From Psammoneis japonica (taxonomy: Eukaryota), in contig QPGO01000017.1 in the NCBI GenBank assembly GCA_008632985.1, forward strand, positions 620,001 through 684,000: a stretch of 64,000 bases of DNA. Direction: 5' to 3'. The position numbers and the translations under genes are program-made. Below the pieces are notes generated by a model that ran no database searches, was not told the origin of the DNA, and saw only the letters and a list, made by a program, of their open reading frames with translations. Shown piece after piece: positions 25,157 through 58,790 of the stretch (its first letter is position 1; the number at the start of each line of letters is the position of its first letter).

Positions 25157-25760
25157 CCAATGAAGGCCAAACGACGGGTTCCAGTCCCAGGTGGGACGTT
25201 TTGTGACATTCGGCCCGCAGAATTCTACGTGCAAGCTCTGCAGTGCAAGAATCTGATCAACGGATGTTTTTGTCTTCAACATCAAATGCAACGGCCAAGT
25301 TTGTGGCACATTTGTGCCTGTCCACACTCGAAGTTTTTGGTGTCCGCCTGCCCTGCGCCATTCTCAAGACATTTGCGAATGGTGCAGAAGCAAAAATGTT
25401 AAAAGTTGTTGAATGGATTGCTCAACAATTGTGCTGCAAAATGATGCAAAATTCCACCAAAGTCATGCAGAAATGTGCGTGCGCGACATGCGGCGCGATC
25501 CAAAAAACCATCAGATGTCGCAGTTCAGCAGTGCGAGGTCCCACCCAGAGCTGGAGCGCATCAAACAGCCCTCATCTGCTTTGACATGATTGCAACTTTG
25601 CGCGCCCGCTGCCACACATGCTCCCCACAAGAATGACATTCACACAAATCCCAGAGCACTTGGTCAGAATCTTGGCATTTTTTGGGCAAGTGCACAAAAA
25701 ATGTGCGCAGCCAACGGCATTTTGAGGCCTTTTTCTGACCATCTTGGCTGGTGTGAAGAT
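24630..25760 (-). mobile_element. PIF/Harbinger-like transposase remnant, MITE-interrupted
   Basis: Homologous to 51905-52990 and 7040-7971. Confidence 0.5.
25173..25562 (+). mobile_element. MITE, GAC...GTC family, 390 bp, TSD AAAC
   Basis: aaac[gacgggttccag...ctggagcgcatc]aaac; homologous empty site near 52485 (ggccaaacaacc). Confidence 0.9.
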
Positions 25761-28639
25761 CCAAGGCTGGCCCTGTCTACCCCCCCAGTCAATTGTTTTG
25801 GACTGTGCCCACCCTTCTTGTCCAGTGGAGTCTGTGACAGAGCTGCAAAGCAAGCACTCTTGCACACTCACAATCAATCGCAGCAACTCTGAGCTCCCCT
25901 CTGCAGCCCACAAGGACACCACACACAAAGCAAAACAAGAAGTGGCCAAACGGAAAGCAAGGACACATGAGGCAACACTCAGATTGATTTTCAGCTCTTT
26001 GCCCAAGAACAACAAGGCCAGAGCTGTCAAGAATGACACAAAAGCAGGAGCATGGCTGTCACACACAACCCTTTGATGCTGAGCTGCACAGAGCTCTTGT
26101 GCAAACAGCTCTGCAATGTTTTTGTTTGTGGTGCAGCAAGGCCTTGCCTGATCTCCTTGAGCACTGCAGTGGATGTGGGCACAAGCTCTTTGCAAACCAT
26201 GCCTTTCAATGTGGGGAGGGCATGGCTGGGTTGTTGGGTGGCATTGCAAAGTGAGCGGCAACCCAAGTGGCCCAGTTGGAGAGGCTTGCAGGCTGTCCTG
26301 TGCGAATGACAAACCTGCCATTGAGAACCCTGCTGTTGGTCATGTCATCTTGGCAAGCCCAAGCAACTTGAGCAATCCATCAAGTGACAAAAATTCCAAA
26401 GTGCCCAAGGATGGCAACTGTGGAGATGTTCCAGCATGCAGACTCTGGGGCAGAAGAGCAGACATGGTCATGGTTGTGGATGTCTGAGCTCCAGGCATGG
26501 GTGCAGGCAAGATTGTGCCCACCCAAGGCACTGGGGCAAGCTCCAGCAGACCATGAACAAGATGAAAAGCACAAGCAATGAGAGAAAAAGTGCAAGCACC
26601 TCAATGAGAGAAAAAGTGCAAGCACCAAGCACCTTGCACCCCGCCTTGAGCAATGTTGCCACTTTTCTCCTGCCCTTTGCAGCACCAGGATGCCTGGCAG
26701 AGAGAAGCCAGAGCAGCGCTCTGAACAATTGCTTCAAGGATGCTTGACAAGCAACAAAAGCTGTGCTTGGAGGTGTGTGGCCACGCTGATGCAAGAATGA
26801 GCACCGCACAATGGCAAGGGCAGCCCTGCAGCATTGCCGCTGCCCAGTGGGATTGTGCACTCCCTCATCTCAGAGCTGATGCTGGTTTGTTCCTTTGGAG
26901 CCACCAAAGGACCTTGCTTGTGCTGAGCTCCACCTGCAAAAAAATGATGCTGACCCGCTGTCCTCAGACACCATTGACAACAAGCTGCTGCAATGGCCAA
27001 AACTTCTGTGCGCCAGCATGGCGGCTGCTGCGGTGTGCCAAAGTCATCCTTTCTTGAGTGCCGCATGAACAGATGACAAAAAATGCACACAGAACCACCC
27101 CTCGCTTGTGTGTCTGAATTTTTGCCCATTTTGAGAAGCACTTTGCAACAACTTTGTTTGAAGCATGAAATGGAAATGGTTTTTGCTCAGAGCCACTTGT
27201 GTTTCCCAGGGGGTTTCAAATTGAGTGTTTGCACCAGACATCTGATGCATGAGAAATTTTCAATGTTTGCTGGCACAGACCATGCAGATTGCATGCCAGA
27301 GATGGTCCAATGCCCACGCTGTCATGCTGAACGCCATTTTTGCAATCTGTCCAACAAGCTTGCTCACATTTTGTGTCAGCAAGATTGTGGATTTGTGGTT
27401 GTCCAAAGTGTGCCAAAAAATTGATTGTGCAATGATTCGAGGCAGGTTGGTGCTGTTTCAATTGTCACAGGTGCTTTCACCATTTTTCCTGCTTCTTTTT
27501 TGTTTTCACAAATCTTTGTCCATTTCAGAAAAGTCAAGGGCATGGAGCATTTTTGTGGTGATCTAAGTGCAATCACATTGCTGTGGGCAGGAGCTGCAAT
27601 CCATGCCAGCGTGCACTGGGAATGAGTGCATGCAACCATGTCAGCTTGCACAAGAGACAGGTCAGCAGGTCAGCACTGTCTCTTGTGGGCTTCTGCTGAA
27701 CAATGGGGAAAAGGGGCCAAGACAGGAGATGACAGAAAAGGTCAACCCGCTTGACCAACACTTCAACATGTTTGTGCTGCACAGCTTGCATTGGCTGCTC
27801 ATCTCATTTTGTTCCCAGTTCTTGAGCTGGCCAACATCAGAGTCAGCATTTTGACTTCATTGTCATGCGTCACCCACTGTGTGTGCTCAACGATGCAGCT
27901 GGAGAGTCTTCTCCTTTCTGCCATTGGATGCAGCTGCTGCTGAGCAAGAAACATCTCCTCCTCAACTGTGCAAAGAAATGCTTCAGCTTTGTGAACTGGC
28001 TGCAATTGTGGGTGCAGCAGCAGAGGAAAGAAACTTGGATTCAGCCAACTTGCACCTCATCACGTTTTGCATTTTTCAGTGCACTTGACCATGCAGACAC
28101 TGGCGCGCACTTGTTGAAGACCCAAGCATGAGTGCAAATGAACTGTGCAATGCCAGGCTTTGAGCTGTTGTTGATGGGGGACACTCTCCTGCTTTTGAAG
28201 GGCAGGGAAACAGGGAAAAGATTGTGGAAGCTCATCTCACGTGCAATGACAGCCAAGTCACATCAAACTTTTGCAACAAAACAACAAAATTGTCTCTTGT
28301 TGGATTCATTTGAAATGAGCAAAAGTTTCCATCCTTTTCTGAAATGCAAAGGCTTTTTGACAAGCCCAGTCTGGGCTAACCCAGCTTGGGAGTGCACAGA
28401 TGTTCCTTCATCAGAGACCCACAGAAAAGGCCTTGAGTCACAGGTCATCGAGCCCCACCATCTCATGGCGTGCACACATGCACAAACATTGGTTGACCCC
28501 CCTCCAGATTGAAGTCAACATTCACTTGTTGGGAGTGCAACATTTTTGTTTGTTTTCACCATCCTGATTGGCACATTTTGCACTCATTGCTCTCAGACGC
28601 ATTTTGTTCCATGTGCACTTGTTGACTTGCATGCCAAGG

Positions 28640-28960
28640 TGCCAAGCAACATGGCTGCATTGCTCCTTTGTCTCTGAACAGTTGTGTTTTGTTCTAACTG
28701 AAACATGTTCACTCTCACATTGGATGTGGCACTCTGCCAAAAGCACTGCATTTCCATCTTCATGATGATTGTCAACCATTTGGCAAAATTTTCACCTTTT
28801 TGACTTGAGCCCCAATGTGCAAAGCAACATGGCTGCATTGCTCCTTTGTCTCTGAACAGCTGCATTTTGTTCCAACTGAAACATGTTTGTTTCCACATTG
28901 GACATGGCATTCCACCAAAAGCACTGCATTTCCATCTTCATGACAAGCGCCAATCATTCA
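28640..28960. repeat. Diverged direct repeat (~140-bp units, period ~180 bp) in a degraded minus-strand ORF
   Basis: HEDGNAVLL-x-ECH...CSETKEQCSHVA is encoded twice. Confidence 0.75.
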
Positions 28961-29721
28961 GCAAAACTTTCATCTTTTTCTGTTTCTCCCTCAAAACCCA
29001 TCCTCGCCATCAACTCATGATGCTCCGTTTGCAGCATTTGTCTGCCCAATTGTGTGCAAGGCATTTGTCCCCTCCACTTGTGATCTGCGCATCCAATCCC
29101 CTGTGTTTTTTGTGAATCAGTGCAGAACTGCAAAAGTGGCATGACAAGGAGTCCGCAGGATTCCACACAAGACTGTGCTGCGTGCATCATCAAGAGCTGC
29201 CAAACAACTCTGCCCCACCATGACAATGAAGTGCAATGGCGTTGATGCTTGTTCCACCTTTTGTGAGGCACACATGGTTGCCGCAACATGACAGCCAACA
29301 ACAAAACAAAGAACGCGCTCCTTCCTTTTAACACAAGTGGCTGGTTTGTGGTTGATTGTTGAGGTGGCTCACCATCAAATTGTCGGCAAAGCACGCCTTC
29401 AGCATGGGACACACTGCATGATCTGATGGCATGTGTTCATTGTCGTGGCCATCTCATGTGACTTGTTGGTGATTTGCACTCTGCAAGAGTTGGGTGTGGA
29501 CCCAAATGTGCCGCATCATGGTCATCATGGTTGGTGACTCAAGAGGTCAGTAAAATCACATTTTCCTTGCTCATGAGCCATGCAGAAATCACTGGAAAAA
29601 CTGTTGTCATTGTGTGGCATTTGGGTTGGATGGAGGATCTGCTCAAATTCAAAAGCAGATGCACAGCCAAATGAAAAAACGTTGTTGAGAGAAACTGCAA
29701 GTTTCTGTGCATTGGTCATTT

Positions 29722-30108
29722 GACGCGTTCCAGCCCTGGGTGGGAGCTCGCAGTGCTGACGTGTGACACAAATAATTTTTGTCATCCGTTGTGCGTTTTG
29801 CACGTGCATTTCTACATGTGACATTCCAACAAAATTGTCCAGACTCGCTGTTTTGCGAAGCCCCAGACGTTTTACACAACAAATTTATAGAAACAACAAT
29901 GCACCAGTTACATTCCTCAATGTCTGAAGAATGTAAGTGACTGAGTAAAAAATGATGCACCAGTTTGTGCGTTTGCAAAATTGCCTCATTTTCTGTTGGC
30001 GTTCATTGACATTTTCATTGCCTGACAATTTTACTATGGAGCTCGCACGCAGAATTCTACGGGCCCAATGTCACACGGATTCCCACCTGCGTCTGGCTGG
30101 AACGCGTC
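29722..30108 (-). mobile_element. MITE, GAC...GTC family, 387 bp, TSD ATTT
   Basis: attt[gacgcgttccag...ctggaacgcgtc]attt; close to the 10365 copy. Confidence 0.9.
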
Positions 30109-30389: not shown

Positions 30390-31137
30390 TTGATTTTTGT
30401 CATCTGTTGCGTGTTTCACACTGGTCTGCATTTCCATGTGTGACATTCCAAAAATGTTGTCCAGACTCGCTGTTTTGCAAAGCCCCAGATGTTTCACACA
30501 ACAAATTTTTAAGAGGAGTCACCCCCTCGTTTATCCTGGAATTACCGTGCAATTTTAATGAGGCCATTTGCAAGTGTTCATTTTTGAATGCAAAAATTGT
30601 CCACATTCCCACCCGATCACACCCAAAACCGAGAAGCATCGGCACTGCAATCGAAGCACGACGATGATGCAATCATCAACATTTCTCAAAAACACAGAGT
30701 TCCACCTCTGCACTGTCATCTGATGCTGATCATGCAATGCATGGCAAGCGCAATGCCAATGAGAGTGCAGAGCTGGCACACTTCCGTCGCATGCTTGTGG
30801 CTTGCGGCTTTCACCATGGTGTGGCATGGTGAAATTCAGAAAAAATCACACAAATCACAAGCCATTTGGTGGAATTTGAGCTAAAAAAAGCAGCGACTGA
30901 CCACTCTTAAGAACAAAAATGCAACAGGTGCATCCTTCAATGTCTGAAGAATGCACCCAGCCAAGTGAAAAATGATGTGCTTCAACCATGGATGATTTTG
31001 TGCGTTCGCAAAATTGCCTCATTTTCTGTTGTTGATCATTGACATTTTCATTGCCCAACAATTTTGCTGCAGAGCTTGCACATGGAATTCTGTGGGCCCA
31101 ATGTCACACGGATTCCCACCTGCATCTGGAACACATC
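30390..31137 (-). mobile_element. Truncated older MITE (GAC family) with a nested insertion
   Basis: Matches 29775-30108 on both sides of 30513-30906; one TIR is missing. Confidence 0.75.
30513..30906. mobile_element. 394-bp TTAA-specific non-autonomous element with GAG...CTC ends (Sola3- or Kolobok-like)
   Basis: ttaa[gaggagtca...tgaccactc]ttaa inserted into MITE sequence. Confidence 0.7.
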
Positions 31138-32391
31138 ACATCACTTCAGCACACTTCAGCACACACCAGAAAAAAAACTGAGGCAGCAGCGGAGGATGAT
31201 GGTCATTGTGGAGCAGGACACAAGCTCAACTGATTGGATGGCGGATCATGCCAAGGTGATTCAGGACATTGCGAAGGTGAGAGAGCATGTCAAGGAAACA
31301 TTGCTCCTCAGTGTCATGCTCACATTCAATGACAAGAGGAAATGGAAGAAACAGGCATGCTCTGCAGGGATCACAAACAGAGTTGCGGCCCAAAGATGAT
31401 GGACAGGATGCTGCAGGATTCACCTGAGCCAGAGCAAAAAACATGCCTGCACCACCTGTGGCTTGTGATGAAACAAAAAAAGATGTGTCAGGAGTGGCTG
31501 GCAATTGAGAGGTTGAGTGTGCACCAGGCACAGCAGGGCAAGTTCCACAGCAAGTGCAAATGGAGGGTGCAACAAGAACAGCCATTGCAGCTGCTGACAG
31601 TGTCGTCACTTGCTTTCCCTGCCCCGAATGAAGCTCTTTGTGCACACTGCAATGACAACAATTGCACCTTGCTGTCCGTGGAAAGATTCCAAGATTGCTT
31701 GGGAAACCCAGCTTTGCAGACAGTGTTCTGTGACTGCATGCTGCATCCAATTGTTAGAGACATGCGCTGGAACAAGTGAGTTGCCAAGAACAAGAGAATG
31801 GGCACAGTGTGCACCAAGGCATTTGCCCACATGCTCCTCAAGAACAACTGCAATTCATGGTGTTCCAACCACAAGAGCCAAGACAAGGATGGGACTTTGA
31901 TGTCAATTGTGGCATGGAGTTGGTTGATGATGGAGGTGCGGCGGACCAAGAGGGAAGCAAGGACTTGAGCGAGACCATCATGCCAGACCTCGCAATGGCC
32001 AAGGAGAAGGGCAACCAGGACAAGAGCGTGCTTGTGCTGCTGCAGAAAGATCCACAAGAGACATTGGAGGAGGAAGGTTTGTTGGCAGAAGAGCCAAAAC
32101 AGAATTTTGAAGAAATGAGAGAAGAATCCATCACAAGATGGGATGCAATGGTCAAGAAGAACAGAGATGAGCCAAAGACTGCAGTCACAGCTCTGACCAA
32201 GGCTGCAAAAGCACTCGCTGACATCCAAAAAGATGCAGATGCATCCAGCAAGAAGAGAAAGGTTGTCTGGACACTCAAGAATTTCATGGTGGCAAGGCCA
32301 AAGAACACAGACAGAAATGTGGGACCGAGCAAGTGCAAGACACCAAGGAAGAGCAAAGGGTGGTTGCCAAAGGCCAACAAGTTTTTTGTTG

Positions 32392-32583
32392 TGTCAGCCT
32401 GTCTGCACCTGTCGTGTGATGGACAGACTGGACACGGATGATGGCCAGACCATTTAGATGGACGAGCAGATCTCTCTGAGATCTGCTTCTCACTCTTTTC
32501 TCACCAGTGCTCGTGTCATCACAGTCCTGGCACTTTGGGGAGTCTTTAGACCATCGTCACCTCATGCCTTCGGCACTCTGTCA
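32392..32583 (+). repeat. 5' LTR, family 1
   Basis: Direct repeat with 39397-39588. Confidence 0.95.
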
Positions 32584-32782
32584 GGTTGTGGCCTTGTGCT
32601 GTGCCACAGACCTCTGCGCCAAGCTTTCCACTTCGACCCACTTGTTTTGTGAGCCGATCGAGCAAGCCTCATCATCTGATCCGACAACTTTTTGTCTTGC
32701 TTTCCCGGCATTTTTCACGACCATAGAAACATGCCAGATTTCTGCGCGCGCATGACCAAAAATGGATCAACCAACTAAAACC

Positions 32783-34813
32783 ATGGTGTCTTCCGACCCC
32801 ACTGAACCCGCTCTTCCGTCAATTGCAGAGATCTGCTGCGAATTTGAGGCACACACAATGACACTGCATCTACACAACTGCCTGAGTGCAGTTTGTGCGG
32901 ACTCCACAACTGATCTTGATTGCTTTTTTGACGCTCCAGAGCATGCGCAACCCAAGAAAGATTTTGCGGACACACTCCGTGATTGTTTCATCTACGAAGC
33001 GTTCCCACCTTGTGCAGCAGATCCCACAGATACAGAATCAATCAAGACGATCATGGATCAAGCCCCGTTTCAACTTGTTGACCCTCAAAGGCCTCGTCCA
33101 GTCCGCTTGATGACTCCGATCTCATCAAAGACGATCAAGACGAACCTTCAGAACGGTGAACAATGCTTGTTCATTGCCACATCTACCCAACACATGCATG
33201 TTGACCCGGATGTGGTGTGGAACTGTCGCAACTGGAACAAGTTCTCTCTTGCACCCTGTCAGCAGAAACAGCAGCCTCCGTGTCCTCCTCAGAAAACTGC
33301 AGGATCTGGCACGGTGAGTGTGGATGACTTGGTCAACGCACTCAACACACATGCATCGAGCCACGCTCCGCCTTCTACAGTTTCTGCCAAGTCTCCTGGA
33401 AGCAATGCATCCTCCGTTACATCCAAATACCTCTTCAATCCAAACACACTGCCAACAGATGTTCGTGAATGCTATGACCGCAAAGAAGAAGGCAAAGTTG
33501 CCCTCAAGAGCTCCCTCGTCCCCTGTGATCATGGATTCCGTCACTGCATTGATGCATCCGATCACATCATCCTCAACGATGGTGCCCTTTTCATCATGAG
33601 CTCGACCCCCGACCAGAAAATGTTGTTCAGGGAACCTCCTGTGTGCCATGATGACTCTCCTCCTGGGATGCGCGCCTGGCACCAAAATTTCCAACGTCAT
33701 GCCTTTGACTTGGGACACCACATGCATCCATTGTGGTGTTTTGCCAAGGATCACGGTGGTGAGAAAGGTTTCGAGATCGGCAATGGCAAGGATGACGACT
33801 TACCTCAACGTGTGTACATCCACTGCAAGGAAGCACAGAGCTCTCTCCACAAGATTCCATCCAAGCCAGACATGTTCCCCAAGAACAGCAAGTGTCATCG
33901 GATTGTTGCATCATGCTGCGGCAATGGATGCAAGGCTCTCAAGCAGACCATCTACGAGAACCACCCTGCTTTCGACCACGATGCTCCAGGACCAGTTGAT
34001 TCCTGTCCTGTCCAAGGCAATCAATCATTGACGGACCACCACATGATCTTCAATGATTTCCTACAGCTGCGTGCCTGCACATTCGATGCAGACTCTACGT
34101 TGAGTGACCCACGAGAGATGACTGTCTTTGTCAAGAACACTGAGTGTTCCAAGTTCTTATCTCGTGCTGCCAGAGATGAATGGAAGTCTCCAACTGTGCA
34201 GAAGAAGCACACTGATGCACAGATTGTCAAGACTCTCTCTGATTTCCTCCGCCAACCGGATGGCCCATCCCTTGCCACCCGCACAACGCCATCCATTTCC
34301 CACTGTAAATGGAATCAAGCAAATGAGGACACGCGACGCACGACCATTGATGTCAATGCTCTCCAGATCCCTGAGATCCCATCCCTTGAACCGGTTGATG
34401 ACTCCACTGCTGAAGACACTGGCATGGAATCCACACCTTCGGATGCCTTTGACACTCTTTGCGACGAGTTACATGAACTTGAGTTCCCTTCCACGGACGA
34501 AGACCGCCTCCTCCATCATGTCTGCTCGGCTTCAGTCTACAAACTCAAGGTCACTCCGAACGAGGCCTCCAAGAAACCATGTCTCGTTTGCTCCGGTGAA
34601 CACTTGTTTGACGACTGTCCAGTCTTGAAGAACAACCCATGTGTCAAAGGATTCCATGTCCGCTTTTGTCAATTCTTGAAGAGGGAAGCGGCCATGTGTG
34701 CTTCTGAGTTCCAAGGACCCCAAGGACTGCTCCCTCCTCATCATGAAAACCCTGAAAATTTGACTGCATCTGGTGCCCCACCCTCTGATTTTCAATTGGG
34801 CCATCGCAGCCAG
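32783..34813 (+). pseudogene. gag: Copia gag (ancestral TAG now CAG; ORF runs on to 34876)
   Basis: Uninterrupted ORF 32762-34876; CLVCSGEHLFDDC knuckle; many Tyr>Cys/His changes. Confidence 0.85.
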
Positions 34814-37800
34814 TTTCGGATCTCCGACGCTGCCCATTTTCTCCTCACCAAGACACCACCAATGTCAGCAGGATGACCATGAAAGAGGGGCTAACCGTCT
34901 CGTCATCTGCCACTGAAATGCCTCTTTCTTTGCAGATTGACATGGATGCCACCCCTGCCACTGCCACGAGGGTGTCATTTGACACTGGCAAATTGCCAGA
35001 CGATGACCCTGCTCCTCAAGAAGACATTGTTGATGCTGCTCCTGCTCCGGATCCTTTGGAACAGGGGAGGGAAGACTCAGAAACACCGGAATTTGAGGAA
35101 CACATTGACCTCACCTGCAATGACATGGCTGTCGAGGATGGCTTTGCTGCCATCAACTCTGTTCGTGTTGCTCCGATCGACCCCTGCCAAGTCACCCAAT
35201 CTCCTGAGCCGGAACTGCCACGCTCCACTTGCTCTGTCAATGGAGTTAATTTTGCTCCAATTGAGCATTGTGCTCAGTTGGACACTGGTGCCGACATTGC
35301 GTGTACAGGCAACCGTGACCTTCTTCATCGACACCAAGAATTCACCCCGTCCAATCCCTGTCCCCTTGCTGTCAATCCCGCCCTTGGCCATCAAGCTGTC
35401 CCAGTTGGATTCGGATACCTGCGGATTCCTGCGGAGAACTCTGCCGGATGTGTTGACGTTCGTGCATGCTGCCACCCACAGATTCAATCTACCTTGGTCG
35501 ATGAACGACTTCTCCTTCGTCAAAATGGCACTCGTCATGCAGATTACAACGTTGATTGTATCCTCAAGTTTCATGATCTTGGCACCTGCAAGTTTGTTGC
35601 ATGACACCGACTGCGCAAGAGTCAGGACATCATTGTTCATGAGAAGTTGATCAAAGGCAAATGTTTTACTCACCCTCTCATCCTCCCGGAATCTAACGAT
35701 GCACTGGATGCATCTGTCGAGCGCCTCAAGACCAGTGACCCTTCTTTTGCCGATGAGTGTGAAGCGGTCTCCACGCATGTGATTGAGACTTGTCGCACCC
35801 ACCAACATGAAGCTCTTCGTGATGAACGCAAGTTGATCCCCCGAGTGTGTCAAGACATCCCTTTCAAGAAGTGCGCTGAGAAGAATGTTCCAGTCCAGTC
35901 TCTCAAGGCTGACACGGAACGTCTTTTATGGCATCAGCGGCTTGGTCACCCGAGTGATCAATGCCTTTACAATGCCCACAAATGCGTGGACGGTGTCCCC
36001 AAGTTTGCTCACGGAACTTCTCCCCTCGAAACTTGTCCCACCTGTGTACGAGCAAAGCAGACGAAGGAACCTGCCGGTCCAAACACCACTCTTACTGCCA
36101 CTCAACCCCATCAAGGTCTTACGGTTGATTTTTCTTTCTCTGGCCTGCACTCCAAGAACTCGGAGCGCACCAAAGACCATGTTGGATTGAATGGCAAGAC
36201 TTGTTGGATCACCATCTACGATCATAAAACGAAGCGTCTCCATGGTGCGACTCGTGTCTCCAAGGCAACCCCTTTGAATTGGCTTTGCCACTTTCTGGAA
36301 GAGCACTCGCCAAAATGTCCCAATGAGTGTGTCTTTGTGGATCAAGGAGGTGAATTGCATCAAAATCTGGAGGTTCGGCGACTTTTCGAGGATGACTTTC
36401 ACTGTGCAATTCGTCCTGCGGGAAAAGATGCTTCAAATCAGAGTGGCCCAGTGGAACGCAGTCACTTGACTGTTGCTGATGCCATTCGGGCGATGCTCAT
36501 TGGTGCCAATTTACCCACAAAATTCTGGCCACATGCTTTTCATCATTTCACTCGGATCAACAACGCCATGCCATCCCGTGGACAAACTGCTGCTCAGATT
36601 GCTCTTGCCACTGGTCGGAAGTTTGACTTCAAGAACTTCCGCACATTTGGTTGTCGAGTTTGGGCACGTGCATCGAACCATCGTCCTGCCAAATTTTGCT
36701 CGGTCTCTCGCAAAGGCATTTTCTTGGGCTGTCTTCCGGACACTGCCAAGAACATGCTCTGGTGTGACACTGAGACTTCCCGTGTCAAGCTTGCCAAGCA
36801 CATTTGCTTCGATGAGGGCATGAATGACCTGCCTCGTGATTCCATTCCTCCGAATGTGGTTCACTTGGAGCGCACTCAAGATGGCAAAACTCCACCTGCC
36901 AAGAATGAAGAATCTACCATTGACGAGTTCCACTTTCATGGGAATCCTTTCGCCAAGACCATTGCGCGTACGATGAAGGGCCCGTTTCCTGACCCGACAT
37001 TTGGAATTTCTTTGGCTGCGGATGAACTCTATCAACAAGTTTTTGCATCTGATGTCAAACGTGGTTCTCCTGCTGCGCGTCTTTTCTCTTCTTTGAAGGC
37101 AACTTGCAACAAGATCAAGGGTGCGTACATTGTGTCGATCGATCATCACCCTGTCTTCACGGCAGAGGAGGCTGTCAAATGGTTTCAGCAGGTCCATGAT
37201 TCTGGCAAGATCGAATTTGTGCCCGAACATCGACTGGACTCTCAAGCTCTGCAACGTGCTCTGATGGAACACAACGTGTGTGCTCCGACTCCTGATCCTG
37301 ATGATGAACACGTCCCGGAAATCACCAACGCTGACGTGCGTGCTGTTGCAGCCATCCGTCACCCTGACATTGATTTCTCCGATGCGGTCGATGATGATGT
37401 CCCTCCGCTGTTCTGTGTTGATTGTGACAATGGTGCAGCAAATGTCTGTGCCATCTCATCTCATGCAGTTGCTCCGGAGGAACAAGCCTTGGGCACTTTC
37501 ACTCGCCATTGTCTCAAGAAGTTGGACACGTGGCCCGAATGGCATGCAGGTGAATTCAAGCAACTTGACCAGTTTCATGAGTTGGGGATGTTTGGTGCAC
37601 CAATTAAACGACCCAAGGATGCTGTCGTGCTTCGTCCGCATTGGCAATGTGACCTCAAGCATGATGGTGCACGGCGCTCCCAACAATGTTGTGATGGATC
37701 ACCCCGTGCTGCGTCGATTCTACATTGCCTGTGCTCGACATGCTCCTCCTGTGTCAAACAACCTGTCCAACAGATGTTTTTTGCTCTTGCTGCGACTGTG

Positions 37801-39218
37801 AGCTACCCTGCATTTGGTGGTGATGCTCGTGACGCCTGTGCACATTCTCCACGGCCGTCACACCCTGTCTACGTTGCCACAGACAAAGCGCATGCCACGT
37901 GGCACAAGGCTGTTTTGGCATTGATTTGGACAGGAGCATGGTCCTTCCAATGCAACATGCACTTCAAGGACACCCAGAAGCCGGCGTGCTCTGGGAGATG
38001 CACATCAATGGCATTTTGTCCGATGTGAACTTGCTCTTTCGCAACACCACTCATGACAAATGCATCCATTTTGCCACTTTTGAAGGACACAAGGTGTTGC
38101 TTCTCCATCAGGTTGATGATTTCTCCCTTGCTTGTCCTGAAGAATCTATTGTGATCAAGATCTACGACAAGATTGGCAAGGCCCTCCAATTGGAATTGGA
38201 AACTTCTCCGCCCTTCAAGCATTTTGACATGATTGAAGAATTCAATGGTGCGGACATTCATCAATGCGATGATTCCATTGGTGCAGCTGTTCACAGCCAC
38301 ATGGATCGGGTTTGTGCCTTGCATGGTTGGTCGACACCGACAGATGAGGAACTCGATGATGACTGCAAGGCTGCACCTCTCCCGGTCAACTCTGTTCGTG
38401 AACTGCACACTGCCATTGGTCCAGCTGAAGGAACCCCAGAGCATGCAGAGTTACAACAAGCTGCTGGATTTGGGTGCCGCACCCCACTTGGTGAATTGTT
38501 GCATGCACATGTTGTCTGTCGATTGGACATTGGGTGTGGTGTCATGACTCTGTCCAAGTTCTCTACTTGTCCTGCTGTGGTTAACTACGATGCGCTCAAG
38601 GGCATGTGCAAGTGCCTTTGCTGTGCCAAACATTGGGAATTGAACTGCAAGAAGCCTGTCCGCGACTCAAAACCACCCGCCTGCCCCTTCGAACGTCTCA
38701 CTCCGGACCCAACCTTACCATCATTCCCTTGTCCCGAGTGTGATCATCAACTCATTGCTTTCTTGGATGCTGCACATGGTGATGACCTCCGCAACCGTTG
38801 CTCTGCGACTGGCCATGCTTGCATGTTGGCTGGTGCTGCTGTGTCTTTTCAATGTAAGACTCAATCGGTGACAGCTGCGAGTTCCACGGAAGCTGAATTC
38901 CATGCGGCTGGCACCACTGCCAAGCATGTCCTTTACCTTTGTCACATCCTACAAGACCCAGGCTTCCCTCAGATGGAGCCAACCCCGCTGCACATTGACA
39001 ACAAATCGGCAATCAAGATCATCAACCATTCGATCCCAACCGAGTGCTCCCGTCACATTGAGGTCCAGTTTTTTGCGATCCAAGAATGGAAGGACGCGGG
39101 CAAGATTGTCACAAGACATGTCCTTGGCATTGTCAACCCTGGCAATGACCTTGTCAAGGCTCTTGGCTGGGCACTGCATGCTTGCCACGCTCGACGCATG
39201 ATGGGACACTGCTGTTGA
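34789..39218 (+). pseudogene. pol: Copia pol in the -1 frame relative to gag; premature TGA at 35602, frameshift near 37905
   Basis: LDTGAD (PR); HQRLGH/CPTC; VDF..VDQGGE..VER (IN); QVDDF (RT); LDAAHG..STEAEF..IDNKSA (RNase H). Confidence 0.92.
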
Positions 39219-39396
39219 TGCTTTTTTTTCGCGGTGGCCTCCCTGCTGCACATTGCCCCTTTTGTTTGATTGCGTGTTGGGCATGGACACTTGTCGTGTC
39301 CCATGTCTAGTCTCTCTGTTTTTCCTCACATCATCCCCATTCTTTGGTTTGATCTGCACTCATCTGTGTGTTGAGACATTGCAGATCACGGGAGGG

Positions 39397-39588
39397 TGTC
39401 AGCCTGTCTGCACCTGTCGCATGATGGACAGACTGGATGCGGATGATGGCTGGACCATTTAGACAGACAAGCAGATCTCTCTGAGATCTGCTTCTCACTC
39501 TTTTCTTGCTGGCACTCGTGTTGTCACAGTCCTGGTGCTTTAGGGAGTCTTTGGACCATCGTCACCTCACACCTTTGGTGCTCTGTCA
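39397..39588 (+). repeat. 3' LTR, family 1
   Basis: Follows the PPT; followed by the TSD. Confidence 0.95.
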
Positions 39589-42500
39589 TGTTGAAATGGT
39601 CATGGAGATCAAGCAAGATGTTACAAGCAGACAACTTGGGCGGTGGGAACAGCTCTGCAGAGCCATCGCAATCAAGCAAGATCAATGGGTGGCAGAAGAA
39701 GCACAGGATGGCTCAGAATTTGTTTTGGCGCGCAAGTCAACCAATTGACTTTGACAACAAAAATTAAAATCAAGTCCCAATGCTGCATTTGGTCATCACC
39801 CAGTCGGCAATGACAAGCAAAGTGAAATCCTGTCAAGCAGCTGGTTCAGAGTTGTGAAATTGTTGAGTTGCACCTCACTCATTGGGGGGTTCATGACTGT
39901 GTGTTGAGATCACTGGATGTTTGTTGGTTTGCATGGACATTTGTTTGTTTTTAATCACACCCATTTGTGATGAATGGGTGTGATTTGTGTTAAATGATGA
40001 TGATTCACCACAAATGCATTTGTGCAATGATGCTCACACACGCCATCTGCAACATTGTCCATTGGTCTGACCACAAGGCAATTCATGGAAATGGGCTTCT
40101 GATGTTCTTGCACTGCCATGATGGGCAACAACACCTTTGACTGGAGCAAGTGCATTGCTCACATGAAACTGCTGTGCTGCTTGTTGCGCCAAATGTTCTC
40201 ATTCTGTTTGCAGCATGCTTGAACAGGCTGTTGGATGATTTTGCCAGCTGAGACAGGCAAGTCATTCAAAGATTCATTGCATCACTGAAGTGTGTGTAAA
40301 AGAACATTGTGAAAAAGGTCATCTGCACAAGAGCAAAAGCTGAGTGCCAAAAACACAGAAAGCAAACTGCAGATTGCAGAGCAAAGGGGAGTGCAAAAGC
40401 AGCGTTCAGAACAGAGCTCATGGCAGAATCTGAAAAAGTGACAAAAGAGCATGCATCAAAGAAAAGACTGGCAGGTCAAGCCAAAATTGACAAGAGCAAG
40501 AGGAGCAAGACAAAGCAGACATGCATCATTGCAACACACCTTGTGACACAGAGGTGGCACCAACAACATCAACAGATGTTGATTTTTGAGAGAGTAAAAC
40601 ACAGTGCATGGTGCAGATTTGGATCCATGCATTGAAAAAGCTCTGCCCCGCAAAATTCAGCATGCAAAAATTCAAAGTCTCTACAGACACAGCAGGATTG
40701 CACTGGATTTGGGTGGCTGGCCAGCAACCAATCTGATGCTGGTTGATTGATTGTTTTTCCATGCCTGTCAGCACGGCAAGTTTGTGCTGAAGCTGAGTCG
40801 TGCTTGTCAAGTGAGTGTGGCTGCCACTTTTTTGTGCATCACATGCCCGCCATTCTCAGTGGCAGGGCCAGCAGCAAAAAAACAATGGACGTTTGGCAGG
40901 GAAAAAACAATGACTCAGGCAAGCCAGTGGAGCTGTGGCAGCTGCCAACAACAAGCTTGCAGTGCTGGTGCCACTCCTGAGCTGTCTGCAAATTGCCTGC
41001 TGCACCACGCAGAATGCACAACTCCAATCTTTGGTGGTGCAGCCTTGGCCCTCTGTGGTGCACCCACAATGCATTGATCTGCCTGGTTGCAGCAGGAGGA
41101 CGCAACCACAGCAGTTCCAGCCCACAATTGCCACAACTGAGGGGCCAACCACGGAGAAGCAACAGCAAAGATCAGACAAGGAAGTGAGGCACAATGCTGC
41201 CACACAAGGCAAAACACCATCAGAGCTCTGGGGAGTCTTTGGCATTGCAAAGATTCCACACTGGTGTCAGAAGAACAAGGCTGCACTGCCCCCACCATGG
41301 GCAGCATTGGTTTCTCTGCCAAAGACAGGAAATCTGGCTGCAGTCCAAAATGCCATTGATGAGCAGCGCCGACTCAAGTCCACTTTGACTTGACAGCAAG
41401 AGCAAGCCTCATCACCAAGTTGCTTCAGCTTGATTTTGTGGGGTGCAATCAGGCAGAGCCCACACAAGCTGTTGACCCCTCGCTGTGCTGCAAGTGGCTG
41501 AACAGATTGCCTGCCACAATTTGATGCATGCACAGATTCACAGAGGTGCAGGAGTGCCATTGCTGCAGGATGCACAGCTGCTCAAAGCACCAAACAAGGC
41601 ACTGATGGCAGCTGCTGTGCAAGCAGCCATGCAATCACATGACAGGTGCCACCTTGTCTGCTCTGCTGCCCTGGGTGAGAGAACCACCCCATTGTGCAGC
41701 AGCTCACTTTGCAGTGGATGAACATGGACAGGCACGCCAATGAGCTGGCATGTCAACACACTCTTCACCCAACACTCCAGCAATGTGCACAAGTTGAGAC
41801 ATGCAACTGGCTCCTGTCACAAGCCAGGACACACCGGAAGATCCCCTTCACAGGGTGCACAATGTTGTTCACAAGGCAGCCAAGAGAACCATGTTTTGGC
41901 ATCTTAGCTTGCCACTGGCCGGCCATGCTTCCTGCCAGTGCAGCCAGCATGATTTCTGCTGCCAATGAGTTGGACACATCAAGCACACAAGCACAGCCCC
42001 CTGCAAACGCTGCTTGTGCTGGAGCCAACAGTGTCATCAAACCCATCCTGCAACTTGTGCTTCACAAAACTGCACAATTGTCCCAATGTGTGCTCTTGTG
42101 AGATAAAAATGCAGTGCACCCAAGACAAGATCAATCTCCCCAAACCCCAAAGATGACCAAGGATGCATCTGCTGCAATCCTTGCCACATCAAAGGGCAGT
42201 GCAGCCAATGTCAACTGTGGCTCAAGCTGTGGTTGCTGCAACAATCACACCAACAAGGAGCAGCAGCAATTCCTTGCCTGGGGCAAGGAACACTGGGAGA
42301 CCAAATGGGTCTTTGGCAATGGCACAAGTTCAGGGACTTGTTGCCAAGAGCCTTTGCACGTGTTGGCCAAACAACCCACACATCCACAACCCCTGACTTT
42401 GGAGAGTTTGAAATGGCAGTGCACCACCCCACCATGCATGGACAGGGTGTGGCTGCCACAACTTACAATGACAAGTTGGTGAGCACATTTTTTTGACCTG

Positions 42501-43796
42501 CACTGCTTTGTTGCATTGCAAAGAACTCAGCCACTTGATGCATCATTGCAGCAGCAGCAGAGATTGGGGGCCATTGGGCTGGAGCCAATGGCACCCAGCA
42601 CACAGATTGCCAAGGGCCCACAAGCACAGAGAACCCCAGTGATCACAGCCAATGCACCATGGACGTTTGATGAGCCAGACACCAGTGTTGACAGAAGACC
42701 GCACACGTCTGCATGCAAGCATGGACCCCACTTAAACCACCACCACCATCATCACCTCTGTTGTGCCAAAATGTGCATGAATGAATTCATTGCCACTTCT
42801 CAGGGATCCTGTTGTTCATGCCACAACATCTGCTGAGTCATCCTGCGCACCTGGGACAACATCTTCCAACCACTCAACTCCGCCAACCTTGCCACCCACA
42901 AGGAGCCTGTGTCAGTCAAGAAGCTCTGCAATGGTGATGAAACTTGGTTGACACAGAAAGAGGTCTTGGGCCAGATCATCATTGACATGCAGTCCACAAC
43001 CACCCACCTCATGCCACACATGAAAGACTTTGCAGCACTCTGCACAAGGACTTTCCTTGCAACAGAAAATGTGCCACCACCGCTGACTGCCAGAAGCTCT
43101 CAGGAGAACTGCGTTCACTTGGCATTGGATTGCCAGGCTCATGTGGCTTGCACTTGGAACTTCAGGAAAACCCCCTCAACACAACACTGGACTCATGTGT
43201 CTGCTGCACACCTGATGCCCACTTGGCACTGGACAACTTTCACAAGCTTGAGTCTGCACTTGAATTGCACCCCATTTGCACCCAGGAACTGGTGTTGCCA
43301 ACACCAACCCTCACCAGCTGCTGTGACACAGCAGGTCATGGAGCAGGAGGCATGCTCCTTCCAACCAACACTGCCATCCCATGCTCCGCCAAAGAACTCT
43401 GTTTTGGCAGTGGGTGCTCCTGTGCACAATGCAATGCAAGCCCCATTGCACCGCACCTCCCCTTCCCCAAAAGCACCACATCTTGTCTTGCCACATGCAA
43501 AAACCCTTGAGGTCCCATCACTGATGTAGATCTTGAACTCACAGGCAGTGTCATCCAATCACATGCTGCTGGGTGTTGCAACATTCAGGAGTGCACCAAC
43601 CTTTCCTGAGCTGACAACTTGGGTGCCATGCACTGGCAATGCAAAGGACCTGCCACACAACCATCAAGCCAGCATCCATGTTGTTGCAATGCCAGGCATT
43701 CCACCAAAGCCACCATTGGCACCTTGGCCTCCATGATTTTTGGCCCAGACACCTCGACTCTGCCACTGATGATGCTTTGCGCCTTCAGCTCCCCAC

Positions 43797-44034
43797 CGAA
43801 AGAAATCCGATGTGTCAGATTTAGTTAGAGTGCTGTTGTTAGAGTGCCATTGGCAACGGCTGGTGCTGAGCCAACCGTTGTGACGTGCCATCGGAGGGAA
43901 GCGTTGGATTTCCCTCCAATGGCGCTCACTTGTTACGAGCAGTTGCAACAGGCCTGAGAGCATCTTTGGATCGTTAGATTGTTGTCACACCAGTGCTGTG
44001 AGTAGCTGAGCCATTCGGCAGCTGGATTTACTCG
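43797..44034 (+). repeat. 5' LTR, family 2
   Basis: Direct repeat with 50223-50460; followed by PBS-like catcagagccag. Confidence 0.9.
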
Positions 44035-44339
44035 CTTCATCAGAGCCAGTGTCCGCACTCCGCGGTTTGGTGATGGAAAACGATGAACAACGTGATTGTG
44101 ACGGTTGTGTCACGATGGCACGGTTTTGACGACGAATGCCGACTAACCTGAGGGTGTTCACCGTTGAGTGATGCCTTCGCATCAGTGCATGCGCAAAGCA
44201 GTGGGAGATGAGGCCACATCACCGTGCTCTCAAGGCCTGCGCGTATAGCCAACGAGATTTTGTGAACGTCAAAGTTTTGATGCACTTCTTCTAACACAAC
44301 TACTTTGTCTTATGATGCTGCAATGAATCAGGTTTCACC

Positions 44340-45761
44340 ATGGCGGCAGCCCCACCGAACCCGATGGAAACGGCCCTTGCTTGGATCGGTTTCCAGCTGC
44401 CTGCTCAGCGTAACGCGATCATGACTGATGTCGCTACGTTTGACGATGTCGTCGACATGAAGGAATCGGACATCGACATGCTCGCGCAGTCTTGTTCGAG
44501 GAGGACTGCTGCTGAGGGGCGTTTCCACTTTGGATTAGCTCGCACCCGTCGTCTCAAGTCCCTTGTTCATTGGGTGCATGACTTCCAACGCGTCAGTGAA
44601 AATCCTGCCATCAACGGTTTGGATCAGGCGCGTTTTCTCAATGCGCTATCTGCTGCGTTGTCGAGGGCCGACATTCGCAGCCAGATGAGGGATCAATCCG
44701 AGTCCATTGCTCGTGAGGCATCCCCTGGACTCTTGGAGAGCGAAAAGGTCTGGGCAAAATGGAGTGCCGCTTTCAAGAACATGCTTGGCACGATGCTGGG
44801 AGTCGACGGCGTTCCGTTGATTTATGTCACACGCGAGAACGAGGAGCCCGAGCCTGAAGGGCATGAGACTTTCATGCAGAAGTTGGTTGCATGCGCTCCA
44901 CTCGAGGGTCCAGCTTTCGAAGCTGATTCTCGTGCCGTCAGCCAACTAATCGTTTCGTTCACGAAAGGTGCCCCAAGCAAGCAGTGGATCAAAGAGCACC
45001 GTGACAGCCAGAACGGTCGTCTCCACTGCAAATCTTTGGAGAACCACTGTCAGGGCGAGGGCAACACTGCCCGTCGTATCTCAGAAGCTGAACGTTTGGA
45101 AAACACTCTGCATCACAGGAGTGAACGCTCCATGACGTTCGAAACGTTCGTGAACAAGCTTCAGGAGATGTTCAACATTTTCGAAGAGAATGATGAACCC
45201 AAGACGGAGGCTCAGAAGCTGCGATTGCCACTCGACAAGGTGCAACACCAGCAGTTGCAGAACGCAGTAGAGACCCTGAAGGTGCAGAATGAGTTCGGAG
45301 GAGGGATTGGTTTTGCTGCAGCGTGCAACCATCTTGCCGCTAAAGTCGCCACTCTCCCGGAAACAGTTGTGCACCGTCGTGCGATTTCCTCTGTTGCGTC
45401 CGGCGTTGGCAAGGAAGGTGATTCCATTTACAAAGAAGATGGGTCCATCAACACCGGATTTCATAAAAATTGGCATCAATTGAGCAAGGAAGACAAGAAG
45501 AAGGTCATGGACGAGCGTGTGCGTTTGGGACTCAAGAAGAAGCCGGGTAACCCGAAGCGCCGCGCTGCATCCGTCAGATCGCTTAAAAAGAAGAATCGGA
45601 AGCTGACGTCCCAGCTTGAGCAAGCGAACTGCACCATTTCTTCCTTGGAGACCACTGCCGGCACCAATTCCGGAAAGGTTGGCACAGGAACTGGCAGTCA
45701 AGGCGGCAACAATGCCGGAGACGCATTTGGGGGACGCCAGGAGCGTCAGCAACGCAGCTGA
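44340..45761 (+). CDS. gag: Copia family-2 Gag (473 aa)
   Basis: Open ORF downstream of the LTR; GVDGVPLIYVTR, basic C-terminus, AGDAFGGR. Confidence 0.85.
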   Translation: MAAAPPNPMETALAWIGFQLPAQRNAIMTDVATFDDVVDMKESDIDMLAQSCSRRTAAEGRFHFGLARTRRLKSLVHWVHDFQRVSENPAINGLDQARFLNALSAALSRADIRSQMRDQSESIAREASPGLLESEKVWAKWSAAFKNMLGTMLGVDGVPLIYVTRENEEPEPEGHETFMQKLVACAPLEGPAFEADSRAVSQLIVSFTKGAPSKQWIKEHRDSQNGRLHCKSLENHCQGEGNTARRISEAERLENTLHHRSERSMTFETFVNKLQEMFNIFEENDEPKTEAQKLRLPLDKVQHQQLQNAVETLKVQNEFGGGIGFAAACNHLAAKVATLPETVVHRRAISSVASGVGKEGDSIYKEDGSINTGFHKNWHQLSKEDKKKVMDERVRLGLKKKPGNPKRRAASVRSLKKKNRKLTSQLEQANCTISSLETTAGTNSGKVGTGTGSQGGNNAGDAFGGRQERQQRS

Positions 45762-48700: not shown

Positions 48701-50054
48701 CTTTGCCTGCGACATCCAGAATGCCTGCTTGACAGCGCCGTGCCGAGAGAAAATTTGGACTCGTGCCGGTGAAGAGTTTGGCGCGGAACGCGGTGAGATT
48801 GTGATTGCAGTCAGGGCACTCTACGGATTGAAGAGCTCCGGTGCGGCATTCAGGGCCTTCCTGGCGGAGACGCTTTGTGATCTGGGATGCAAGCCTGGCA
48901 AGGCTGATCCCGACGTTTGGATGAGGCCAGCAGTGAAGCCAGACGGATTCGAGCACTACGAGTGCATCTTGGTGTACGTCGACGACTTTCTGTCGATTGG
49001 TCATGAGCCGATGAAGACTGTGGATGGCATCAAGTCGAAGTTCAAGCTCAAAGACGATAAAGTGGCGGAACCCGAATCCCACTTGGGCGCCAAATTGTCG
49101 AAGATGGACCTTGCTGACGGTGCCACCTGCTGGACGATGTCAGCAGAAGATTGCTGCAAGGCGGCAGTCTGGAATGTTGAGGACAAATTGGCCAAGGAAG
49201 GAAAACGGCTGCCGAGTAAAGCACACACACCTTTGAGTGGCGGACACAAGCCGGAGTTGGACACTTCGGGCGAACTGGATGCAGAAGGCCTCAACTGCTG
49301 CCAAGAGCTGATTGGCGTTTTGATTTGGGCCGTGGAATTGGGTGGGGTCGATGTCATTTTGGAAGTGTCAAATGTGTTGGCTCACCTTGCCTTGCCGCGC
49401 ATTGGTCACTTGGAACAGGCATTGCATGTCTTTGCATACCTCAAACAGGTCCCAAAGCGCCGGGTGGCATTCGATCCCACACATCCGGTCATCGACGAGT
49501 CTGGGTTCAAGGAGTGCGATTGGCTCGACTTCCACCGAGACGCGCAAGAGGCGATTCCCCCCAACATGCCACCACCTCGAGGTGACGTTGTGTCTGCTCA
49601 TTGTTTCATGGATGCCAACCATGCTGGTGACGCATCAACTCGCCGCAGTCATGCAGGCACTCTGATGTTCCCATGCCAAGCACCCATCATCTGGCATTCG
49701 AAGAGACAGAACACCGTGGAGACTGGCACTTTTGGCGCCAAGATCGTGGCACTCAAGGTCGCGGTGGAACTTGTTGAAGGTCTGAGGCACAAGCTTCGAA
49801 TGTTTGGAGTTCCTGTTGAAGGTTCTACGAACGTGTTCTGTGACAATGAAGCAGTGTACAAGAATTGCTCCATCCCGGAGTCTGCTCTCAAGAAGAAGCA
49901 TCATTCCATTGCATGCCATCGCAATGGGGAAGCTGTTGCTGCGGGGACTGTTCGCCTGGCAAAGGAGGACACGGAAACTGACCTCGCGGATTTGTTCACG
50001 AAGGTTGTGACTTCGATTCGTCGCAATTTCCTGTTGGACAAGTTCACTTGTTGA
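45762..50054 (+). pseudogene. pol: Copia family-2 Pol (PR, IN partly in the gap, RT, RNase H); no stops in the sequenced parts but many TpA-derived missense changes
   Basis: ELDSHADT (PR); HSSVVSRDSVR; DIQNACL; ALYGLKSSG; VYVDD; DANHAG; CDNEAV; LADLFTK. Confidence 0.9.
46755..47298. other. Assembly gap (544 N) within the integrase region
   Basis: Run of N. Confidence 1.
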
Positions 50055-50222
50055 ATTGGCGGCAAATGGGGTTTGGATTTTGGGAATTGGGTCGGTGGTG
50101 ATTTTCTTCCCTGGTGAGGGTTTACACCATGGCCAGCACGGAGTGTTAATGTGGTTGATTGCATTGGTTGAATTGTGCCTGTCAAGCACGCCCTTGGCTT
50201 GTTAGAAACATTTCAAGGGGAC

Positions 50223-58742: not shown

Positions 58743-58752
58743 CTGCTGCAGC

Positions 58753-58784
<32 letters not shown>

Positions 58785-58790
58785 ATGATG
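58743..58790. repeat. Compound (CTG)n(ATG)n microsatellite
   Basis: Seen directly. Confidence 0.9.

Follow-up and report, generated by a model that had tools for sequence, protein, structure and literature searches.

How can the two long terminal repeats (LTRs) of a single retrotransposon come to differ at dozens of letters, all of one kind, while the rest of their sequence stays the same? The question is raised by element A, which occupies positions 32392 to 39588 of a 64-kb stretch of Psammoneis japonica DNA (contig QPGO01000017.1, positions 620,001 to 684,000; referred to here as the window). A preliminary description, made from the letters alone, had counted the LTR differences by hand and had proposed a very fast process that acts on palindromic dinucleotides after insertion. 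We consider it likely that the integrated DNA of element A underwent TpA-to-TpG/CpA (A:T>G:C) hypermutation, accompanied by a separate and slower CpG decay.

The LTR pair of element A

On its sequence features, element A is a single Ty1/copia LTR retrotransposon insertion in a transposon-filled region of a genome that, judged from the relatives of its transposons, is probably that of a diatom. Its 5' LTR (TGTCAG...CTGTCA; 32392 to 32583) and 3' LTR (39397 to 39588) are 192 bp each, lie on the forward strand, and were aligned without gaps by MAFFT, followed by a scripted partition of the differences. Five bases, TGTTG, stand directly before the 5' LTR (32387 to 32391) and again directly after the 3' LTR (39589 to 39593, from the LTR alignment) as a forward-strand target-site duplication. 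A polypurine tract, GGGAGGG (39390 to 39396; forward strand), read from the same alignment, adjoins the 3' LTR, and an identical purine run precedes two further LTR copies in the window. After the 5' LTR, in a region that is itself mutated, no tRNA-complementary stretch was identified as a primer-binding site. A repeat search of 31 to 41 kb returned one direct-repeat pair (32391 to 32588 and 39396 to 39593; 86% identical).

The two LTRs differ at 26 positions. All 26 differences are transitions; neither other substitutions nor indels occur. They comprise 11 double differences at which one LTR has CA and the other TG, 2 TA/TG sites, 1 CG/CA site, and 1 CG/TG site, which reproduces exactly the count made by hand (11 CA/TG, 2 TA/TG, 2 CG/x, and nothing else). 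Pyrimidine-purine (YpR) dinucleotides cover 92 of the 192 LTR positions and contain every difference, while 0 of the 100 non-YpR positions differ; random placement would confine all 26 differences to YpR dinucleotides with a probability of about 5e-9, and at least 11 adjacent difference pairs arose with a frequency of 6e-5 in 100,000 random placements. The YpR dinucleotides common to both LTRs are TG (14), CA (12), CG (4), and TA (1). Three TAs survive in at least one of the LTRs, every one of them in TTTAG.

Each LTR exhibits both outcomes. Along the 11 double sites, the 5' LTR reads TG, CA, CA, TG, CA, CA, TG, CA, CA, TG, and CA, which supports the proposal that palindromic dinucleotides were struck independently, on either strand, after insertion. 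The two LTRs do not come from different subfamilies, a possibility raised in the preliminary description, given that both are alike at every non-YpR state that separates two LTR subtypes of the window. The warning that LTR dating would overestimate the age of this element also holds, because the raw divergence is 13.5% and yet none of the non-YpR positions has changed.

Ancestral state of the changed dinucleotides

Given that the LTRs cannot be polarized by themselves, we used the coding region of element A. On the forward strand, it contains a long open reading frame (ORF) of 704 amino acids in the position of gag (32762 to 34876), with no Pfam match, followed by a degraded pol gene in three overlapping or abutting ORFs (34873 to 35604, 35647 to 38028, and 37899 to 39218; i.e., 34873 to 39218), as assessed by Pfam and tblastn. 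The ORF at 35647 to 38028 contains gag_pre-integrs (6.7e-08) and SH3_retrovirus (6.4e-11), and RVT_2 lies downstream in the ORF at 37899 to 39218 as a weak match (E value, 2e-4; 21.5 bits, against a curated cutoff of 31.6). This arrangement, with integrase-side domains followed by RVT_2, is the Ty1/copia order. Diatom-type copia proteins aligned by tblastn at 52 to 59% identity in two segments, with a change of frame near 37910. Homologues of element A numbered 102, with about 50 to 59% identity for the top matches, and the full-length ones carry PF13976, PF25597, and PF07727. Those with names were mostly from diatoms (Nitzschia inconspicua, Cylindrotheca fusiformis, and Psemu1, which we take to be a Pseudo-nitzschia genome; 31 to 55% identity); the remaining named homologues were two bacterial metagenome bins and one weak match from Pavlova lutheri.

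Where the 20 homologues compared by tblastn have Tyr, element A most often has His (33%) or Cys (29%), followed by Phe (15%) and Tyr (12%). The same holds for element B, a second copy of this family (family 1) in the window, with Cys (33%), His (31%), and Tyr (5%). Conserved columns were then defined by at least 60% agreement among at least 8 aligned homologues, from a set of 40. At 34 conserved Tyr codons, element A has CAY (14), TGY (12), TAC (5), and TTT (3), where Y is a pyrimidine; at 35 such codons, element B has CAY (14), TGY (14), TAY (2), and other codons (5). The conversion of TAY to CAY or TGY thus reached 26/31 in A and 28/30 in B. Conserved His, Cys, and Trp codons were almost all unchanged, indicating that CA and TG are sinks and that the direction of change is from TA. 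Conserved Arg codons were decayed at 18/51 sites in A (CGN, 33; TGY, 8; CAN, 10) and at 19/53 in B (CGN, 34; TGN, 7; CAN, 12). Each of these two copies has lost 84 to 93% of its TA and about 35% (35 to 36%) of its CG.

A copia element of a second family (family 2; 43795 to 50461) was polarized from its own homologues, those of family 1 being too distant (22 to 30% identity). Its 29 conserved Tyr codons are represented by CAY (10), TGY (11), TAC (6), and TTC (2), a conversion of 21/27, whereas its 53 conserved Arg codons are CGN (33), AGR (17), or other (3), with no TGN or CAN; the decay of CGN is 0/33. As a control for alignment artefacts, Tyr loss was found in 0 of 120 family-2 homologues. 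TA has therefore been purged from this element while CG is intact, so the two processes are separable and independent; family 2 is younger than the family-1 copies and provides an early-stage example. A general sense-strand bias at conserved Tyr was considered and dropped, the His:Cys ratios being 14:12 (A), 14:14 (B), and 10:11 (family 2).

These results bear on the view that the whole pattern is CpG decay, with every double site a former methylated CG that became TG in one LTR and CA in the other. CpG decay did take place: it removed CGN Arg codons from A and B, one double site (32446) is CG in two other LTR copies, and a CG ancestor alone fits 8 of the 39 testable CA/TG doubles between A and B. 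However, Tyr codons contain TA and no CG and were nevertheless converted in both copies; family 2 lost 21/27 of its Tyr TA and 0/33 of its Arg CG; and the observed/expected ratio of TA over the whole 64-kb window is 0.14 (CG, 0.51; CA, 1.63; TG, 1.64; G+C content, about 0.50). Furthermore, at a CG decay of about 0.35 per copy, we calculate that about 0.4 discordant doubles derived from CG would be expected in LTR pair A, against the 11 observed. Pure CpG decay can thus be given very little credence.

The doubles themselves point the same way. Elements A and B differ by 148 CA/TG doubles. Coding sequence covered by homologues does not include 67 of them, and another 42 have no conserved homologue residue; the 39 testable ones are compatible with a TA ancestor only (25), a CG ancestor only (8), or neither (6). 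LTR pair A retains four CGs intact in both LTRs and two in one LTR. An ancestral number of about 25 TA sites would give 10 to 11 doubles at a TA loss near 0.9, as observed. Among the five LTR copies of family 1 in the window, site 32446 is CG in two others and is therefore CG derived, and sites 32459 and 32502 are TA in one copy each. Taken together, coding-sequence polarity and rates point to a TA ancestor for about 10 of the 11 doubles and a CG ancestor for about 1; the counter-case named in the preliminary description, that every double had been CG, does not apply. A very fast targeted process, as first suggested, is likewise supported, with 0/100 non-YpR changes against about 90% of TA converted.

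Timing, targeting, and distribution of the TpA changes

Given the intact target-site duplication and the absence of non-YpR differences between the LTRs, the changes took place after integration. Both strands were struck: the order of CA and TG along element A contains 71 runs (75 expected; z, -0.66), with no strand runs. Such interspersed outcomes exclude editing of one strand of RNA or cDNA, strand-coherent read artefacts, and import from other copies. A pattern that did not arise after integration (i.e., an artefact of sequencing or assembly, RNA or cDNA edited before integration, or recombination or gene conversion of diverged copies) is in keeping with the miscalling of modified bases on some platforms, with the editing of retroelement cDNA by deaminases, and with the recombinant LTR shared by B and C, a third family-1 copy. 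Nevertheless, we find it scarcely credible. Artefacts and single-strand editing would be strand coherent, whereas TG and CA alternate both in the LTR and along A; editing before integration would leave the LTRs identical or marked in one direction, whereas those of A differ and contain both outcomes each; and recombination would import non-YpR differences, of which pair A has none, whereas A and B differ at 1,012 positions (about 600 of non-CpG type, 182 transversions among them). The signature also recurs in independent metagenome assemblies.

The interspersed sequence is also present in read contigs at least 99% alike. Contigs from the accurate reads of run X1 contain 65% of the sampled 31-mers of 32000 to 40000, and 3,681 of them aligned to A at at least 80% identity, 551 of these at at least 99%. 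No RNA run was listed as containing the sequence, a result without bearing on expression. The many matching contigs indicate that the family is multicopy and that the assembled letters are present in reads. Among 40 of the 1,386 variant places, a subset biased toward A-only differences, were places at which A has TG or CA and the family has CG, as well as private non-YpR changes. Two run X1 contigs link 32386 to 39589, with five letters that fit either side and intervening letters that are not known, and loose contig ends at 39589 run into left-flank sequence; contigs that join 32386 and 39589 are compatible with copies of the flanking repeat without element A (i.e., an empty site).

The same signature was observed in a metagenomic copia family. 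Six of the 102 homologues of A lack Tyr at conserved sites, and one of them (P0053) keeps 0% of its Tyr and has His or Cys at 65%. The DNA around relatives of this protein comprised 80 metagenome loci of another, unrelated copia family. The observed/expected ratio of TA in these loci ranges from 0.01 (L001) to about 0.7; as it falls, the G+C content rises from 0.48 to 0.54, and CG remains near 0.7 throughout. Site ancestry was taken as the majority state of at least 10 copies per position. At 170 majority-TA sites, L001 has TG at 98, CA at 61 (159 together), and TA at 1, and it keeps CG at 132/183 majority-CG sites. Over 51 distinct copies, the TA-mutated fraction ranged from 0.03 to 0.99 and correlated with non-YpR divergence (Spearman, 0.52; P = 8e-5); its correlation with CG decay (0.21) was not significant. 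Mutated and unmutated sites are interspersed within copies. The only LTR pair among the loci of at least 5.5 kb, that of L011, differs at 7 TA/x, 2 CA/TG, and 1 CG/TG sites and by 1 transversion, while 7 TA and 10 CG are shared. Strand-skewed TA outcomes were seen in L033/L034, L032, L053, and L027 (e.g., TG 35 and CA 8 in L033/L034; 0 and 9), a hint that the local direction of replication or transcription influences the strand struck.

The flanking bases matter as well. At the level of sites in the metagenome family, the median TG fraction was 0.71 for YTAY and 0.08 for RTAR (Mann-Whitney P = 3e-5; R, purine); the most mutated context was RTAY (0.43) and the least mutated was YTAR (0.23). Residual TA in the window follows the same trend (retained fractions of 0.020 to 0.028 for RTAY and 0.034 to 0.045 for YTAR). 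The preference can be stated as one for A in 5'-TAY-3' or, just as well, for T in RTA.

Two islands in the window (4 to 7 kb and 21 to 24.5 kb) bear on the targeting of the process. Their shared core (4888 to 7100 and 22445 to 24660; 2.2 kb) is 96% identical over the block and 98 to 99% identical in ungapped stretches. The two copies differ by 18 non-YpR substitutions, with 7/84 TA sites and 4 CG sites changed and 77 shared TAs retained. By our arithmetic, the excess of TA change per position is about 4-fold in this pair; for element A, family 2, and L011, the LTR pairs give about 60- to 150-fold or more. At TA-derived sites, family 2 has 15 changed positions and L011 has 11, and each has 1 non-YpR change. 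With an island pair that is near normal in TA, duplication alone does not appear to trigger the process, and a genome-wide action is unlikely. An untargeted bias, by which TpA and CpG would be hypermutable everywhere and retained in genes by selection only, is nonetheless in line with the TA-poor state of nearly the whole window, which offers no demonstrably neutral nonrepeat sequence for comparison. We judge it improbable in view of the contrast between the island pair and the transposon LTR pairs, the sharp borders of the islands (within about 1 kb), and the range from 3% to 99% TA loss within one metagenome family. The island ratios of TA (0.4 to 0.72) belong to a comparison within a window that contains neither a confirmed host gene nor neutral DNA of unique sequence.

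Targeted TpA hypermutation would account for element A as follows. The integrated DNA would have been struck site by site on either strand, TpA becoming TpG or CpA, until about 85 to 95% of the ancestral TA of each LTR and of the coding region had been converted, and strikes on opposite strands of the two LTRs would have left CA in one and TG in the other. A slower, separable decay of CpG to TpG/CpA, most simply deamination of 5-methylcytosine in methylated transposons, would explain about one double and the two CG/x sites. The TpA process would run about two orders of magnitude above background, would be regionally targeted to transposon sequence, and would be gradual.

Several points weigh against this account. 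Other LTR copies polarize only 3 of the 11 double sites directly (1 as CG and 2 as TA), and the remaining 8 are CA or TG in all five copies, such that their TA ancestry is a rate argument. A homogeneous one-rate model (p of about 0.9) predicts about five TA/x sites in pair A, and two are seen. The 3' LTR of A and the 5' LTR of B agree at 9 of the 11 double sites, above the 50% expected from full independence; the strand preference at TAY explains this in part, and conserved Tyr codons of A and B are near independence (15 concordant and 10 discordant). The partitionable LTR pairs are three in the window and one in a metagenome contig. Run X1 is possibly the source data of the assembly itself, its library type not being on record. 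TA loss rises with ordinary divergence, which indicates a cumulative process, and a burst-like defense event is not shown. Finally, A>G on one strand is T>C on the other, and deamination and a thymine lesion are thus indistinguishable from sequence.

Around element A, the two other family-1 copies lie on the reverse strand. Copy B (12981 to 19983; 5' LTR, 19792 to 19983, plus internal region) is about 86% identical to A, and the truncated copy C (7972 to 12980) has its 3' LTR at 7972 to 8164. They form an LTR-internal-LTR-internal-LTR array (7972 to 19983) in which one LTR (12798 to 12980) serves as the 3' LTR of B and the 5' LTR of C; it is of another subtype than the 5' LTR of B and has a deletion relative to the remaining LTRs. 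This array suggests unequal recombination between elements. The LTR pair of C has 34 indel columns, and its substitutions comprise 7 CA/TG, 3 CG/x, 2 TA/x, and 3 other transitions. The family-2 element is on the forward strand, with LTRs of 241 bp (43795 to 44035 and 50221 to 50461; 93% identical) that differ by 5 CA/TG, 5 TA/x, 2 CG/x, and 1 other transition and that still share 11 CG and 3 TA; its open frame (45762 to 50054; 1,430 codons) crosses an N gap (46755 to 47298), and its sole named homologue is from Fragilaria crotonensis. A dispersed repeat family has three copies that are 65 to 88% identical (10447 to 10759, 29805 to 30104, and 30427 to 31137), one of them inside C.

Dinucleotide ratios in 1-kb steps divide the window into strata. 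TA and CG are lowest in the old background (e.g., 26 to 29, 40 to 43, and 51 to 64 kb; TA, 0.00 to 0.08; CG, 0.04 to 0.33; CA/TG, 1.8 to 2.05), followed by family 1 (TA, 0.09 to 0.17; CG, 0.42 to 0.81), the family-2 copia element (TA, 0.09 to 0.26; CG, 0.73 to 1.03), and the two islands, in which CG is about 1. This gradient indicates that TA was lost earlier than CG. The oldest stratum (1001 to 3000, 26001 to 29000, 40001 to 43000, and 51001 to 64000) has no recognizable protein domains and presumably consists of transposon relics mutated to saturation. Over both strands of the window, the triplets TAA (351) and TAG (274) are far fewer than TGA (2,998), and this depletion leaves many long ORFs on both strands; 19 ORFs of at least 100 amino acids overlap element A, on both strands, and gene finders are likely to over-call such ORFs.

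The island core is part of a unit repeated 17.5 kb apart (3715 to 7986 and 21250 to 25171) that brackets elements C and B. Its core is near normal in TA and CG, and its edges are TA poor and barely alignable; the unit may be a young mobile unit or protected sequence. A 117-bp tandem array of about five copies (94 to 96% identical; 4228 to 4863), with one unit also at 21924 to 22091, encodes a 39-amino-acid Ser/Asp-rich repeat within a 246-amino-acid ORF, and a weak DCX-like Pfam match (8.6e-07) was found there. Pfam searches of 16 long ORFs of the window yielded this match and a copia domain and nothing else; the window revealed neither a host gene nor an rRNA or tRNA (Pfam on the 16 ORFs; 0 Rfam matches; 0 tRNAs), and inspection of the island ORFs by eye alone revealed no recognizable protein.

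Candidate agents and known systems

Full-text literature searches yielded no TpA-specific hypermutation other than that of Bigelowiella natans (Mettrop et al., 2026 preprint; 10.64898/2026.01.13.699255). According to the main text of that preprint, two integrated viral regions mutate about 1,000-fold faster in mutation-accumulation lines, with changes that are almost only A>G/T>C and all at TpA; transposon-type domains are enriched in TpA-depleted coding sequences; and an ADAT2-like deaminase is proposed. Natural action on chromosomal DNA is reported, as cited there, for only a few ADAT2 homologues. In both cases, T/A>C/G changes at TpA yield TpG or CpA depending on the strand, TpA is depleted, CpA and TpG are gained, and the G+C content rises; the B. 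natans case, as described there, concerns integrated giant-virus and virophage DNA and is confined to foreign or integrated DNA. The differences lie in the host lineage (B. natans is a chlorarachniophyte [Rhizaria], and the transposons studied here have diatom relatives), in extent (the viral insertions retain TpA, with a Rho of 0.45, while the LTR retrotransposons and the 64-kb region are near saturation, at 0.00 to 0.17), and in the type of evidence, which was measured in real time in B. natans and is inferred from sequence here. The LTR-pair evidence, the TAY preference, and the CpG decay are not reported in the main text of the preprint, whose supplements could hold context or transposon data. 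In two diatom papers, PMC9998398 and 10.1101/2025.10.24.684338, term searches of the available text gave no match for TpA, dinucleotide bias, or hypermutation.

What kind of agent could act in this way? By analogy, a TadA/ADAT-like enzyme that is directed to silenced transposons and deaminates adenine in their DNA would fit, with the tRNA adenosine deaminases TadA and ADAT2-3 and the adenine base editors derived from TadA as known counterparts. TadA/ADAT enzymes act on the A that follows the invariant U33 of tRNA, which matches the TpA requirement; the natural target of TadA and ADAT2-3 is A34, always after U33, and the loop read by TadA is U-A-C-G. This tRNA context matches the T-A-Y requirement for A>G. 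Such an enzyme, as proposed for B. natans, is our preferred candidate for the agent, with evenly balanced confidence. The other candidate is a thymine lesion in TpA, whereby an enzymatically oxidized or modified thymine (of the 5-hydroxymethyl- or 5-formyl-uracil type) would pair with G and give T>C. Many protists have thymine oxidases of the TET/JBP type, and 5-formyluracil is able to mispair with G. Since TA is palindromic, all counts fit this lesion equally, and the TAY preference becomes RTA for a modified T. We rate it as unlikely, given the match between the tRNA target of TadA/ADAT enzymes and the TpA requirement and that the B. natans authors, in the main text of their preprint, favor deamination (10.64898/2026.01.13.699255).

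Several better-known processes resemble this one in part. Fungal repeat-induced point mutation (RIP) also inactivates integrated transposons by rapid dinucleotide-specific transitions, with copies that diverge fast and distorted dating. However, RIP is C>T, mainly CpA to TpA, and leaves AT-rich relics, whereas the direction here is the opposite, from TA to CA/TG. RIP is triggered by duplication, whereas the 2.2-kb duplicate described above (96 to 99% identical) keeps near-normal TA, although it is possibly too young for exposure; and RIP is strand coherent per duplex, whereas no strand runs occur along A. As an explanation for the window, RIP was rejected on the basis of the TA ratio of 0.14, the G+C content of about 0.50, and the TA-to-CA/TG polarity.

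Decay of CpG by 5-methylcytosine deamination accounts for the sites at which CG is opposed to TG or CA, for about one double, and for the CG ratios of 0.04 to 0.33 in the oldest strata. It cannot remove TA or turn Tyr into His or Cys, and it is slower here and absent from family 2. Methylation of transposon CpG is known in diatoms, according to the available text of PMC9998398.

APOBEC3 and ADAR likewise cause transition hypermutation of retroelements with a neighbor-base preference. They act before integration on RNA or single-stranded cDNA, on one strand, leaving LTRs alike, whereas both strands of integrated LTRs were struck here. ADAR prefers a 3' G, and this differs from the 3' pyrimidine preference observed here. 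At the other side of the target, ADAR favors a 5' U, as stated in the main text of the B. natans preprint (10.64898/2026.01.13.699255).

If our reading is true, element A and its relatives extend TpA hypermutation of the kind described in B. natans to LTR retrotransposons of another major lineage and to one or more additional environmental organisms, which would suggest a widespread, overlooked genome defense or at least a targeted mutator. More tentatively, and with somewhat less than even confidence, we propose that diatoms, and perhaps, in view of B. natans, stramenopile, alveolate, and rhizarian (SAR) protists generally, possess a dedicated DNA adenine deaminase mutator derived from TadA/ADAT that recognizes 5'-TAY-3' and is guided to new retrotransposons. 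Such a mutator would quickly erase TpA on both strands, destroy Tyr codons, spread missense changes, and raise the G+C content; acting independently of cytosine methylation, it would mirror the RIP of fungi.

These features provide diagnostics for genome screening, namely, a TA ratio near zero with CA/TG near 2 and an unchanged or raised G+C content, Tyr>His/Cys at conserved sites, and CA-versus-TG doubles between sister LTRs. The TAY trinucleotide preference constrains the enzyme. For annotation, the process means that homology-based detection of transposons is degraded, the reverse transcriptase of A being barely detected by Pfam, and that, where TAA and TAG have been lost, long spurious ORFs arise on both strands. 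For the history of these elements, it means that LTR-divergence dating would be badly inflated, as in element A, where a raw divergence of 13.5% accompanies 0/100 changed non-YpR positions.

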